IMG/VR virus record: IMGVR_UViG_3300009509_000001
Span: 32,001-96,000 of that record
Reading direction: 5' to 3' (one strand)
DNA: 64,000 nt
Origin: a virus
The notes below the pieces were generated by a model. The model saw nothing but the letters and a program-made list of their open reading frames with translations, was not told where the DNA came from and searched no databases. The position numbers and the translations under genes were made by a program. Every line of letters starts with the position of its first letter. The stretch's first letter is position 1. Below, piece by piece: positions 54,837 to 57,904 of the stretch.

Positions 54837-55283
54837 TTACAGAAACTTCTCCAGCTCGTCGTTGAGCTTCAGATAGCCTTCAGGGGCTTTGTCGCCCTTG
54901 AAAATCAATTCGACCTTTGCCTTCGTGTTGCGGCTGAACATGCCGCGGCGCATTTCGATGCTCATCTCGTGCTTGCACTCGTCGTCGTCGCACTCGTGTT
55001 CGTCCAGGCCACCGATCTCCACGTCGAACTCCATGCGCATCTTGTCGAGGCGAATGCCGCTGGCTGGCATGAGCGCAAGCATCGGCACTTCGATCTCTCG
55101 CATGGCTCCATCGCCGCCCGGCACCGGAACCTGCAGCTTGAGGGTCTTGACCTTTCCGTCCTCGTCGATGTGCTGCTTGATCGTATCAAGATGCTGGTTG
55201 CGCACCAGTTCCTGGGCCTTGATCACCGCGTTCTGCAGCGCCCGTATAAGTTTGCTCAGTCCCGTTACTCGTTTGTGTGCCAT
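54837..55283 (-). CDS. DUF2589-like protein (partner type)
   Basis: L..LIRALQNAV..AQ......IEVPMLALMP.S...D.M.MEFDV...I.L...G...PEG..KL. Confidence 0.65.
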   Translation of the reverse strand: MAHKRVTGLSKLIRALQNAVIKAQELVRNQHLDTIKQHIDEDGKVKTLKLQVPVPGGDGAMREIEVPMLALMPASGIRLDKMRMEFDVEIGGLDEHECDDDECKHEMSIEMRRGMFSRNTKAKVELIFKGDKAPEGYLKLNDELEKFL

Positions 55284-55540
55284 TACATCTTAACCCTGTG
55301 TGTTACGATTCCGACCTTCTTGACGACGGTGATGCCGCGCGCCGACTTCATCTCGCAGTAAGAGGAGTCCAGCGCCTGGCTGCTGCAGCCGCGGCCCACG
55401 ATGTAGCCGCAGGCCGTGCAGACTTCGACCATGGCGGTGCCGTCGCACCCACTGCACTTGCGCGTCCGCTTCTTCGGGTCGCGGCCCGTGCCGTTGCAGT
55501 CCGGGCAAATGCCCTTCTTCGTATCGAGCCGACCGATCAT
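55283..55540 (-). CDS. Zn-finger protein (DnaJ-type CxxCxGxG)
   Basis: CPDCNGTG...CSGCDGT...CTACG. Confidence 0.6.
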   Translation of the reverse strand: MIGRLDTKKGICPDCNGTGRDPKKRTRKCSGCDGTAMVEVCTACGYIVGRGCSSQALDSSYCEMKSARGITVVKKVGIVTHRVKM

Positions 55541-55914
55541 GGCTGCTCCTTGTACCATTTATCGTAGTATTTGTCGTCGCTTCCCAGAACCCGTCCGGCA
55601 TACTTCCGCATGTTGACCTTGCAGTTCTTGCACGTCACGTCGTCGATTACTTTGGTCTTGTCGTACCCTGTATGCTCTCGGGCGAAACCGCATTGGTGTA
55701 CGCCGTCGTAATGAACTTTCAGCGCTTTCAGCGCTTTCACGGCAACCGGCTTCTTACGGGATGCCTTCTCGCGCTCCGCCCGCTTCTTCTCTTTGTACTC
55801 ACGCGTCTTCACCATCTGCCTGAGTGTGCTGCAGAAGGAGCTGCATGTCTTCTGGTTGGCCCTATGTGCGTAATACGGTTTACCGCACATGCGGCATATA
55901 CGGCGTTTCTTCAT
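55537..55914 (-). CDS. Basic Zn-finger protein
   Basis: CRMCGKPY...CSSFC; HQC...CKNC. Confidence 0.6.
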   Translation of the reverse strand: MKKRRICRMCGKPYYAHRANQKTCSSFCSTLRQMVKTREYKEKKRAEREKASRKKPVAVKALKALKVHYDGVHQCGFAREHTGYDKTKVIDDVTCKNCKVNMRKYAGRVLGSDDKYYDKWYKEQP

Positions 55915-56201
55915 AATACCGGCTGCTCCTCCGTGATACGCGGCTGTCTGGTAAATCCGATGTGGTAGACTATGTGCTGGAGCACTACCTGGTGCTCGCC
56001 CATCTGGTACACGGCGAAGCCTTTCTCCTGCCCGATCAGCTTGCCCCTTGGGGACGACCGGTTGATGAGGAAGTTCACCTTGTCCATCGCCTTTCGGATC
56101 TCCTCTTCCGTCTTGATCCTGCTTGGATCGGTGTTACCCACGACGACCCGCTCTACGTGTCGGATCGCCGTGAGATCGAATGGTTTGTCGTCGTGCGACA
56201 T
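55911..56201 (-). CDS. Conserved-looking hypothetical protein
   Basis: 96 aa; coupled to the DUF2589 gene; R.VVG..DP...GEHQVVLQ...YHIGF.R.P. Confidence 0.7.
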   Translation of the reverse strand: MSHDDKPFDLTAIRHVERVVVGNTDPSRIKTEEEIRKAMDKVNFLINRSSPRGKLIGQEKGFAVYQMGEHQVVLQHIVYHIGFTRQPRITEEQPVL

Positions 56202-56836
56202 CAGGGCGTTGTTGCCGGGGTTGGGCTGATGGCGTCGTTCATCATGTCGAGAACGCGGGCCAATCCTTCAGGCATGCCGCTGTCCGACGCACTGACCGTG
56301 ACGTCGTACTTGGCGCTGTTGTCGCTCTTGCGCGTGTGCGCCGAGTGCGACGAGGTCTTGCCATGCACCTTGACCGTGGCCTTGAACGGACCCCAGCCGA
56401 CACTGGCGCTGCCTTCGAAGCCGGCTTCGCTGTCGCTGGCCTCGGTGTCCTCGGTACTGGAGTTGACGCTCATGGTGAAGGCGATGTCCACCTTGTCGAC
56501 CTTGAGGGACGGCATGGGGATGATGGCCAGCAGCGGTACGTCGATCTCCACGTTCTTCGGGGTGATCTTGGAAACCGTCTTGGTCTTGTCGGCCGGGTCC
56601 TCCACCTGTTCAAGGATGTTCTGCATGTAGCCGAACTTCACCATGTTGGCGACCTTGATCGTCTTGGTCTTGTCGGCCGGGTCCTCCACTTCCTGGAATC
56701 CGGTCTTCAGAATGAAATCCGCGTTCGCACTGATCATCTGCGCGTTCGCCTTGGCTGCGGCCTGCAAAGGGCCGCCGATCAGGGAATCCATCGGCAGGTT
56801 GCCGAATTGTTTACCCATGTCTACGAGTCCAGGCAT
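56201..56836 (-). CDS. DUF2589 family protein
   Basis: QFGNLPMDSLIGGPLQAAA...VPLLAIIPMPSL...GWGPF...TRKSDNSAKYDV.V.A...GMPEGLARVLD; GGAGGT SD. Confidence 0.8.
   Translation of the reverse strand: MPGLVDMGKQFGNLPMDSLIGGPLQAAAKANAQMISANADFILKTGFQEVEDPADKTKTIKVANMVKFGYMQNILEQVEDPADKTKTVSKITPKNVEIDVPLLAIIPMPSLKVDKVDIAFTMSVNSSTEDTEASDSEAGFEGSASVGWGPFKATVKVHGKTSSHSAHTRKSDNSAKYDVTVSASDSGMPEGLARVLDMMNDAISPTPATTP
56576..56689. repeat. 30-nt exact direct repeat inside the DUF2589 gene (VEDPADKTKT x2)
   Basis: CGTCTTGGTCTTGTCGGCCGGGTCCTCCAC at 56576-56605 and 56660-56689. Confidence 0.9.
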
Positions 56837-56997
56837 CTGGTACCTCCGTTTGTTTGTTCTTGTTGCCCTTTGTGTTAATGAAAATGGTAGCCCCGGTTTC
56901 CTGATCGCGCTGTCAACGAGCCCCTTCCGGCTGAGGCTTTAACGGCTCCCACGCGATCAGTGCCGGCTGCCCGGCAAGGCACAAGGGCACTACCTGA

Positions 56998-57149
56998 TGG
57001 CCAGGAAGGCGGGACTTGAACCCGCATAAGGATGCATCCACACCGACGGTCGGAACGCGAACGCGCTGACTACGCGCTCCAACCAAGCTACCCGGCCGAG
57101 CCGGGTCACTGCCAGTTGTGTCGGTGGCCTACCGTTCGGCCACTCCCTG
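56998..57149 (-). ncRNA. tRNA-like RNA 1 (152 nt), anticodon loop replaced by a ~72-nt insert
   Basis: Acceptor CAGGGAG/CTTCCTG, G73, CCA; D arm GCC-GAACGGTA-GGC; stem CACCGAC/GTCGGTG; variable hairpin GGATGCATCC; T arm GCGGG-TTCAAGT-CCCGC. Confidence 0.7.
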
Positions 57150-57238
57150 GAATGCCTCTGACCCATACGCCGGTCTAAGGCGGTAGCGACGTCCGTAGAG
57201 CCCGTGCGCTCCTTGGCTACTTCTGTAAGGCACGGTGT

Positions 57239-57336
57239 TGGTGAAGAGTGACGGATTTGAACCGCCTTCAAGTGCGTCCTGCCCAACGGCCGAAGCCGTG
57301 CTCCGCTCTTGCTTTACCGACATAAGATAACCCTTC
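57239..57336 (-). ncRNA. tRNA-like RNA 2 (98 nt), anticodon loop replaced by a 27-nt UUCG-hairpin insert
   Basis: Acceptor GAAGGGT/ACTCTTC, A73, CCA; D arm CTT-ATGTCGGTA-AAG; stem AAGAGCG/CGCACTT (one mismatch); T arm GGCGG-TTCAAAT-CCGTC. Confidence 0.65.
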
Positions 57337-57411
57337 AATAAATGCCGACCCCTTACCACCATCATGTGTCAGGTAGTGCGCGGGTCGGCGCAATCAATGG
57401 AGGCAAGGTAC

Positions 57412-57663: not shown

Positions 57664-57825
57664 GGCTGCACCTCCTGTGTTGAAATCTAAAGGGCACTTC
57701 CCTCCCTCCCCTTCGTGAGCCACGTTCGCTCCGTCCAGTTCGGGAGGTGCCGGCGACCCGGCAAGGCAAGAACCCGCCTGCGGGAGCGCGGCGGCGATGC
57801 GCCGTCAATCACGCTCCATGCTTTA

Positions 57826-57854
57826 TCTATAACGGGAGTTTGCCGCTAAGTCAA
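57826..57854 (-). promoter_or_regulatory. Sigma70-like promoter for the small ORF/tRNA-like/DUF2589 unit
   Basis: TTGACT-17 nt-TATAGA. Confidence 0.7.
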
Positions 57855-57871
57855 GGCAACTTGGAAATTAC

Positions 57872-57904
57872 TCAGTGGATAATCAGTGGATAATCAGTGG
57901 CTAA
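57872..57904. repeat. Three tandem 11-bp repeats resembling DnaA boxes
   Basis: TCAGTGGATAA x2 plus TCAGTGGCTAA; the minus strand reads TTATCCACT. Confidence 0.85.

Follow-up and report, generated by a model that had tools for sequence, protein, structure and literature searches.

Genes for tRNAs in phage genomes are usually regarded as helpers in codon usage, or as replacements for host tRNAs that are cut by defence nucleases. Stable small RNAs that do not decode are also encoded in the tRNA array of phage T4, namely species 1 and 2 (rnaC and rnaD), and their function is still unknown (PMC9697503). Some tRNAs of Lak megaphages and other jumbo phages carry ‘enigmatic’ introns, i.e., tens of nucleotides (nt) of conserved structured sequence in the anticodon region that are sometimes tRNA-like themselves, and whose mechanism is unknown (10.1101/356790; PMC13037316). 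In the engineered tRNA scaffold of Ponchon and Dardel, the acceptor, D and T arms are kept and a structured RNA replaces the anticodon stem-loop, and such molecules are correctly processed and protected from nucleases in E. coli (PMC3753655). Here we describe TL2, a tRNA-shaped RNA gene of 152 nt from a phage (IMG/VR record IMGVR_UViG_3300009509_000001), in which a structured insert takes the place of the anticodon loop. The sequence analysed, referred to as the window, is the 64,000-nt stretch that corresponds to bases 32001-96000 of a complete phage genome of 194,576 base pairs (bp) with direct terminal repeats. This phage encodes split multisubunit RNA-polymerase beta-like genes, and almost all genes of the window lie on the minus strand. 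TL2 occupies 56998-57149 on the same strand, and position i of the RNA is window position 57150 - i.

Architecture and predicted fold of TL2

The extent of TL2 was defined by the ends called by ARAGORN in intron mode, by the predicted fold, and by a homolog with its base-pair counts (see below). The 5' strand of the acceptor stem, CAGGGAG (57143-57149), is followed by U8 and G9, by a D arm of class II type with a 3-bp stem and GG in its loop (57127-57140), and by the 5' strand of the anticodon stem, ACCGAC (57120-57125), whose partner GUCGGU lies at 57042-57047. The 3' part of the molecule consists of a 16-nt variable arm made of the hairpin GGA-UGCA-UCC and its flanks (57026-57041), a T arm with a canonical loop (GCGGG-UUCAAGU-CCCGC, 57009-57025) and, at 56998-57008, the 3' strand of the acceptor stem (CUUCCUG), a discriminator G (57001) and an encoded CCA (56998-57000). 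TL2 therefore shows the 7-bp acceptor stem, unpaired N73, CCA, GG-containing D arm and UUCRANY T loop of a canonical tRNA. The anticodon stem is present, but it is not closed, as the 5-bp stem of a canonical tRNA would be, by a loop of 7 nt that holds U33 and an anticodon. An earlier note on this DNA, made from the letters alone, had described these arms, with G73 and CCA, and their sequence and coordinates were borne out on the minus strand.

In place of the 7-nt loop, 72 nt separate the two strands of the anticodon stem. They begin with a conserved single strand, J1 (ACAACUGGCAGUG, 57107-57119), continue with the hairpin Pa (ACCCGGC-UCG-GCCGGGU, 57090-57106) and the linker J2 (AGCUU, 57085-57089), and end with the hairpin Pb (57048-57084), a 12-bp helix (GGUUGGAGCGCG/CGCGUUCCGACC) that carries a 13-nt loop. 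In the prediction, the insert forms a three-way junction that joins the anticodon stem with Pa and Pb, and the minimum-free-energy fold of TL2 was a cloverleaf whose anticodon stem opens into two hairpins. The fold energy was -73.9 kcal/mol (z = -3.0), and none of 200 shuffled sequences did as well (0/200), in agreement with the earlier proposal that the insert is structured. Pb was predicted to stack directly on the anticodon stem in the folds of both TL2 and its homolog. The first hairpin noted previously (CCCGGC-TCG-GCCGGG) is Pa. The second (GCGCG-TAGTCAG-CGCGT) is one of two registers available to that strand, but the comparison with the homolog favours the longer helix of Pb, in which six pairs have changed on both sides.

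J1, the base of Pa and J2 may together adopt a kink-turn-like motif. The pattern can be drawn as GGC-AGU-G-A-CCC opposite GGG-U-A-GCU, with A.U at the 2b.2n position, and A.U at the second pair has a precedent in Kt-23 of T. thermophilus (PMC2790904). The bases concerned are invariant, so there is no covariation to be read from them, and an alternative pairing, A40-U64 with G41-C63, is also predicted.

Default settings of ARAGORN gave no tRNA gene (0), whether the program was run on the window or on all 194,576 bp of the genome, and searches of Rfam at the gathering score gave no match for TL2. When introns were allowed, ARAGORN called c[56998,57149] exactly, in the window as well as in the whole genome, albeit with an implausible loop that has G33 and the anticodon ACC. 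ARAGORN, one of the tools suggested as a check in the earlier note, thus recovers the gene in this one mode. In E-value mode, Rfam returned only weak matches to selenocysteine tRNA (tRNA-Sec), of 16.8 bits for TL2 (gathering score 47) and 24.3 bits for TL1, a second tRNA-shaped RNA of the same locus. The intron mode also reported a ‘tRNA-Thr with 1094-nt intron’ at genome positions 101197-102381 (+), which we discarded as a false positive, since this stretch is coding on the minus strand and had no Rfam hit.

A homolog in a related phage and evidence of selection

Searches with the DUF2589 protein encoded downstream of TL2 led to L008, a 1.3-kb Logan contig whose DUF2589 protein is 91% identical. 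A covariance model built from the window copy alone matched L008:67-226, a TL2 homolog of 160 nt, with 77.4 bits (E ~2e-16). Upstream of its DUF2589 gene, L008 holds a 5'-truncated tRNA, then the TL2 homolog, and then a further structured stretch. The truncated gene (L008:1-59) is a genuine tRNA with the anticodon CAU (elongator Met or Ile2 type) and an encoded CCA, and scored 36.2 bits with the Rfam tRNA model (gathering score 29). Since the TL2 homolog begins 7 nt past this CCA, it sits in a tRNA array and would be co-processed with the tRNA. At the equivalent place, the window has an unalignable spacer (57150-57238).

In the alignment of TL2 with the L008 copy, standard pairs were present in 97.6% of cells, and 13 of the 43 pairs had changed on both sides, against 0-3 in controls in which the partners were slid by 1-3 columns. 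The search for compensatory changes in a related phage, as proposed in the earlier note, was thus successful. Four of these double changes were seen in the acceptor stem, where 7/7 pairs are formed in both copies and one pair has a single change, one in the anticodon stem (A-U to C-G, with 6 bp in both), six in Pb (95.7% paired over the two homologs), one in the variable arm (GAGU-GCGC-ACUC in L008) and one in the T arm, which is 5/5 paired in both and also has one single change. The D arm was identical in 12 of 15 columns, with one pair altered from C-G to U-G. RNAalifold returned the same cloverleaf and three-way junction, from an alignment that was fitted to the model, which makes this result not fully independent. 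G-U pairs, numbering three in the window copy and five in L008, establish that the minus strand is the RNA strand, and the lengths of 152 and 160 nt, which result from several indels summing to 8 nt, exclude a coding reading.

The adjacent DUF2589 gene served as neutral yardstick, with an identity of 87% over its whole and of 70% at four-fold sites. Between U8 and the base of Pa (positions 8-47), 36/41 columns were identical in the two copies, including 12/13 in J1 (consensus ACAACUGGCAG(U/A)G), and J2 together with the flanking GGG and GG forms an invariant block, GGGUAGCUUGG (positions 57-67, 11/11). Overall, identity is ~90-100% in the D arm, the anticodon stem, the strands of the junction and the base of Pa. 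The base of Pa, ACCC/GGGU, is invariant, and its distal part is replaced in L008 by a longer and unrelated hairpin; Pb differs in sequence and forms the same helix, within an insert of 80 nt. The acceptor stem, on the other hand, retained all of its pairs with only 5/14 identical bases, indicating that its shape is kept and not its sequence. Its pairs are exchanged at close to the neutral rate, with no conservation of pairs 1-3, and the discriminator is G in the window and A in L008, while the CCA is the same. Therefore, selection acts on sequence in the D arm, the anticodon stem and the junction face, and on shape only in the acceptor stem, Pb and the variable arm. Such a pattern argues against a conserved synthetase identity set at the acceptor end, and points to the junction limb as the functional surface. 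Judged from the two sequences, TL2 is a real RNA under selection.

These comparisons also bear on the idea that TL2 is a decaying remnant of a phage tRNA array, in which a tRNA-Ser or tRNA-Leu gene was broken by part of another tRNA gene too recently to have lost its shape. The phage has no working tRNA, the tRNA(CAT) gene of L008 has no recognisable counterpart in the window, and the insert does hold a piece that resembles a D arm (UAGCUUGGUUGGAGC). However, 13 double-sided compensatory changes at a neutral divergence of ~30% would not be expected unless pairing were selected, the core is far more conserved than the four-fold sites, and the intergenic sequence on its flanks can scarcely be aligned any more, whereas the TL2 unit still can. 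We consider decay very improbable. The D-arm-like piece is conserved in both copies as UAGCUUGG(N)AGC, and may be left over from the 5' half of a tRNA or belong to the junction fold. A second tRNA-like 5' half within the insert, starting with GGCCGGG, had earlier been taken as one side of a nested or switchable fold, in which it would pair with the 3' end of the RNA. GGCCGGG of the window can pair with CCUGGCC at the 3' end, but the corresponding AGUAGGG of L008 makes only three pairs with CCUGUCGU, and the switch is not upheld by the homolog.

Only two members of this kind of RNA are known, TL2 and its L008 homolog. Neither the 1.1-kb region nor the 152-nt gene had a relevant blastn match among 50,697 phage records, and exact and degenerate pattern scans of IMG/VR gave no homolog. 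A pattern scan of JGI metagenomes and another of GTDB genomes gave only one and the same chance match, within a metX-like coding frame, where the model fails. Two IMG/VR relatives reached through the RNA polymerase gene had no match to TL2. Among contigs with close DUF2589 relatives (L002-L007 and L014), the RNA was missing or the contig was too short; the syntenic relatives L002-L007, with DUF2589 identities of 60-84%, have no RNA of the TL2 type upstream of DUF2589, which places the RNA cluster at a variable module boundary. In 151 bacterial genomes, the model matched ordinary tRNA-Leu and tRNA-Ser only.

Class II body and the question of decoding

By its sequence features, the body of TL2 is of class II (Ser/Leu type). 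In common with class II tRNA-Ser and tRNA-Leu, it has a 3-bp D stem with GG, a long variable arm, a 7-bp acceptor stem, CCA and a T arm; unlike them, it lacks a 7-nt anticodon loop and falls below the Rfam and ARAGORN thresholds. Of the T4 tRNAs, those best matched by model R1 were tRNA-Leu (32.3 bits) and tRNA-Ser (30.3 bits). Bacterial tRNA-Ser(CGA) genes have exactly the same anticodon stem, ACCGA/UCGGU, and the T arm does not differ from that of a bacterial tRNA-Leu(CAA).

We then considered whether removal of the insert could restore a decoding tRNA. The anticodon stem is fixed by covariation, and on inspection any 7 nt drawn from its flanks place A or C at position 33 in both homologs. 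For each homolog, ARAGORN was used to score some 650 to 730 excisions made in silico, and it accepted many, the body being strong; no canonical loop with U33 was common to the two homologs. The sole excision consistent in both uses the canonical 37/38 site and leaves the loop CACAACG with the anticodon CAA, A33 and C37. From these results, TL2 almost certainly does not read codons.

An intron-containing class II tRNA would therefore have to take this one form, a Leu(CAA) tRNA with an intron of 67 nt in the window and 75 nt in L008. In its favour, ARAGORN accepts the gene in intron mode, Leu(CAA) is found among the excisions of both homologs, and L008 has A73, the usual discriminator of tRNA-Leu. 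Unexplained introns, some of them tRNA-like, also occur in tRNAs of Lak megaphages and other jumbo phages (10.1101/356790; PMC13037316). Against it, the loop would carry A33 and C37, where U33 is near-universal and position 37 is expected to be a purine, the other excisions yield no conserved U33 loop, the G73 of the window conflicts with Leu identity, and no intron-less allele is known. The insert, at 72-80 nt, is also too short for a group I intron (~200 nt or more), as the earlier note had held, and searched alone against Rfam it matched no family, whether intron or ribozyme, with no group I hit at E-values up to 10. Likewise, inspection of both homologs and of the fold confirmed that no bulge-helix-bulge (3-nt bulge, 4-bp helix, 3-nt bulge) can be drawn, and we rejected an intron of archaeal or eukaryal type; RtcB was not found in the phage, and no search was made for a splicing endonuclease gene. 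In the complete genome, Pfam searches found no CCA-adding enzyme, RtcB, Rnl2-type ligase, Rnl1-type ligase (a search run without a positive control) or Ro60. The phage would thus lack the RtcB, Rnl1-type or Rnl2-type ligase with which to join the exons, and we regard splicing to a decoding tRNA as distinctly unlikely. By ARAGORN, the genome has no ordinary tRNA gene either.

An RNA that does not decode could still be charged. Seryl-tRNA synthetase (SerRS) and leucyl-tRNA synthetase (LeuRS) do not read the anticodon, and TL2 might be aminoacylated by one of them and act as a decoy for tRNA-directed defence enzymes, or as a donor of amino acids outside the ribosome. The class II body, encoded CCA and intact elbow would suit such a role, as would the cluster of glycan-building genes that lies beyond the upstream side of the RNA cluster. 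However, the discriminator varies between G and A and acceptor pairs 1-3 are not conserved, the GNAT domain encoded upstream belongs to the RimJ/RimL-type Acetyltransf_3 family and not to the Fem-type aminoacyl-tRNA transferases, and a decoy for anticodon nucleases would require an anticodon loop. A chargeable decoy or carrier therefore seems improbable. The specific case made earlier for charging by SerRS fares no better, given A73 in L008, the near-neutral turnover of the acceptor pairs, and the absence of G2:C71 from both copies. The broader claim in that note, of a tRNA mimic that does not decode, is retained as the best reading, as TL2 is selected and has no usable anticodon, although without the switch and the case for SerRS.

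Proposed role of TL2

We favour, with somewhat better than even confidence, the view that TL2 is a functional, stable RNA that has a class II tRNA body as its chassis and does not decode, that it matures like a tRNA, and that its conserved junction is the working part. This view draws on the 13 double changes with nearly complete pairing and low counts in the slid controls, and on core conservation that stands well above the identity at four-fold sites. Stability on a tRNA chassis is suggested by the class II body and by an architecture shared with engineered tRNA scaffolds. TL2 and TL1 would be transcribed within a longer minus-strand precursor, the likely start being a sigma-70-like promoter near 57850, or read-through from upstream. 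Host tRNA maturation enzymes would then free TL2, with RNase P cutting where the 5' strand of the acceptor stem starts, and with 3' trimming that halts at the encoded CCA. The released RNA would adopt an L shape through the D-loop/T-loop elbow, and its anticodon limb would run on into the three-way junction where the anticodon stem, Pa and Pb meet, with no terminal loop. The conserved face, which the D arm and the anticodon stem form together with J1 (ACAACUGGCAG), J2 (GGGUAGCUUGG) and the base of Pa, would be the working part and would most likely bind a protein partner. The tRNA body would see to it that the RNA is processed and stable, and might also give it access to tRNA-handling factors. 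That TL2 is expressed and processed, that it adopts an L shape and that it has a partner is what we infer from the sequence and fold.

Several observations weigh against this interpretation. The covariation comes from two sequences only, in an alignment that was fitted to the model and so favours structure, and the invariance of J1 and J2 puts any pairing or kink-turn-like fold between them beyond the reach of covariation. The closest syntenic relatives, L002-L007, do without the RNA, so it is dispensable in the lineage. In addition, the whole phage genome was scanned for antisense duplexes with J1 and J2, and no site exceeded what shuffled queries gave.

We also entertain, as a tentative and rather unlikely possibility, that TL2 is a natural ‘tRNA scaffold’ in a stricter sense, i.e., a class II body that is matured by the host and perhaps charged, with a conserved k-junction-like module in the place of the anticodon. 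Such an RNA would enter the pathways that handle tRNAs (through RNase P, its CCA end, a synthetase, or a defence enzyme directed at tRNAs) and never the decoding centre, and it could serve as an inhibitor, a decoy or a carrier.

TL2 keeps all that is needed for being made and handled like a tRNA, has lost decoding, and has gained a conserved structured module. If expressed, it would offer a route into under-described phage RNAs that are missed by standard annotation. To our knowledge, RNAC and RNAD of T4 have gone 50 years without a known function.

Neighbourhood of the RNA cluster

TL2 shares an intergenic tract of roughly 0.5 to 1 kb with TL1 (57239-57336, minus strand). TL1 was recognised from its fold and from a sub-threshold match to Rfam tRNA-Sec (24.3 bits, E 0.038) in the window copy only, the L008 contig being cut off short of this upstream region. 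It has a 7-bp acceptor stem (GAAGGGU/ACUCUUC), A73, CCA and a T arm (GGCGG-UUCAAAU-CCGUC), and in its fold the anticodon arm is replaced by a rod of ~41 nt capped with a UUCG tetraloop. The z-score of this fold was only -1.2.

TL1 and TL2 are bracketed by a perfect 11-bp inverted repeat on the minus strand, the 3' arm of which (56987-56997) begins with the base that directly follows the CCA of TL2, and the 5' arm of which (57369-57379) lies upstream of TL1. By our estimate, chance would produce ~0.05 repeats of this kind in 621 nt. The repeat may form a long-range processing helix; it was seen in the window phage alone, the L008 contig not reaching the upstream arm.

This arrangement raises the possibility that the cluster is a cis-acting processing or leader element. 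The tRNA-shaped units would then act as ‘punctuation’ for RNase P and 3' trimming and, with the 11-bp bracket helix, would lead to cutting of the precursor so that the 5' end of the DUF2589 operon mRNA is defined or stabilised, with no role in trans. The inverted repeat itself fits this proposal, as do the position of the cluster directly upstream of the DUF2589 gene in both phages, a leader conserved between the window and L008 immediately before the ribosome-binding site, and a hairpin motif that is duplicated in two leaders. A minihelix of acceptor stem and T arm would suffice for such a function, however, which leaves unexplained why the D arm, the anticodon stem, J1 and J2 are conserved at 90-100% and why Pa and Pb are retained; moreover, the same operon is expressed in relatives that have no such RNA. 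We therefore judge a purely cis-acting element unlikely.

The duplicated motif is 22 nt long and consists of a GCCGG-N4-CCGGC hairpin with its flanks. Its copies, at 56960-56981 and 57747-57768, are identical in 20/22 positions, and no third copy was present in the 194-kb genome. One copy lies 3' of TL2, and the other in a leader behind a promoter-like site. This site, TTGACT-17 nt-TATAGA (57826-57854, minus strand), was read by eye and is a candidate sigma-70-like promoter upstream of a small open reading frame and the RNA cluster; a consensus promoter scanner passed over it, as the scanner demands T at position 6 of the -10 hexamer. Just upstream of it, at 57869-57900 (-), is a triple direct repeat of CCACTGA(TTAT) (the CCACTGATTAT repeat), which may be an operator. 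Searches with the possible small open reading frame upstream of the RNA cluster found no homologs.

A third structured stretch separates TL2 from the start of the DUF2589 gene (window 56880-56997 (-); L008:227-400). It is closed by a terminal helix in both phages (GGUAG.GCCC/GGG.CUACC and GGGCGGU/ACCGCCC), and its 3' end is CCA in both, followed by the conserved leader (U/A)UUUCAUUAACACAAAGG. This stretch may be a strongly degenerate third tRNA-shaped unit.

Downstream, the RNA cluster adjoins two DUF2589 genes of 211 and 148 amino acids with small genes between them (54837-56836, minus strand). Bacteria and many contigs of uncultured phages keep this pair as well (777 hits). Elsewhere in the genome, 74 kb from the RNA cluster, is a gene for a reverse transcriptase of 387 amino acids (RVT_1, 65 bits; genome 163459-164136, minus strand), with a DUF2201/VWA-like metallopeptidase-domain protein and an AAA_23 protein as neighbours.

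Comparison with known systems

Several known families of tRNA-like RNA were considered and rejected. Bacterial tRNA-Sec has an 8-bp acceptor and a 5-bp T stem, a 6-bp D stem and a UCA anticodon. TL2 has a 7+5 arrangement, a 3-bp D stem and no UCA loop, and its 16.8 bits in Rfam compare with a gathering score of 47. YrlA-type Y RNAs and the tRNA-like domain of transfer-messenger RNA (tmRNA) resemble TL2 in being partial mimics of tRNA that do not decode (PMC4201824). The ends of YrlA form a Ro-binding stem, those of TL2 an acceptor stem with CCA, and there was neither a TROVE match in the genome nor an Rfam hit. In the case of tmRNA, at position 3:70 the window has G3-C70 and L008 has U3-A70, not G3:U70, the tmRNA mode of ARAGORN returned nothing, and no reading frame with a stop shared by TL2 and the L008 copy, nor any tmRNA pseudoknots, were found.

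Like TL2, the ‘enigmatic’ introns of Lak megaphages and jumbo phages place tens of nucleotides of conserved structure, at times tRNA-like, in the anticodon region (10.1101/356790; PMC13037316). Those genes regain a normal anticodon when the insert is removed and have intron-less alleles, whereas TL2 yields no canonical loop and no allele lacking the insert was found. The engineered tRNA scaffold is closer in architecture, in that a structured RNA stands in for the anticodon stem-loop on an otherwise intact body (PMC3753655). It is man-made and based on tRNA-Lys3 or tRNA-Met, whereas TL2 is natural, of class II, and carries an insert that is under selection. If expressed, TL2 would be the natural counterpart of this laboratory device.

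The species 1 and 2 RNAs of T4 are likewise small RNAs within a phage tRNA array that do not decode (PMC9697503). In rnaC, a canonical T arm (CCGGG-UUCGAAU-CCCGG) lies by long hairpins, and the predicted fold has no anticodon arm. As annotated, rnaC lacks a full 7-bp acceptor stem, a D arm and an encoded CCA, whereas TL2 keeps every arm and swaps only the loop. Homology of the two was rejected, as the match of model R1 to rnaC (16.7 bits) spans a 95-nt 3' part that includes the T arm, and the folds differ. TL2 is a new form of a poorly described kind of RNA, and rnaC and rnaD of T4 are its nearest described natural analogues, by a likeness in kind and not by descent.

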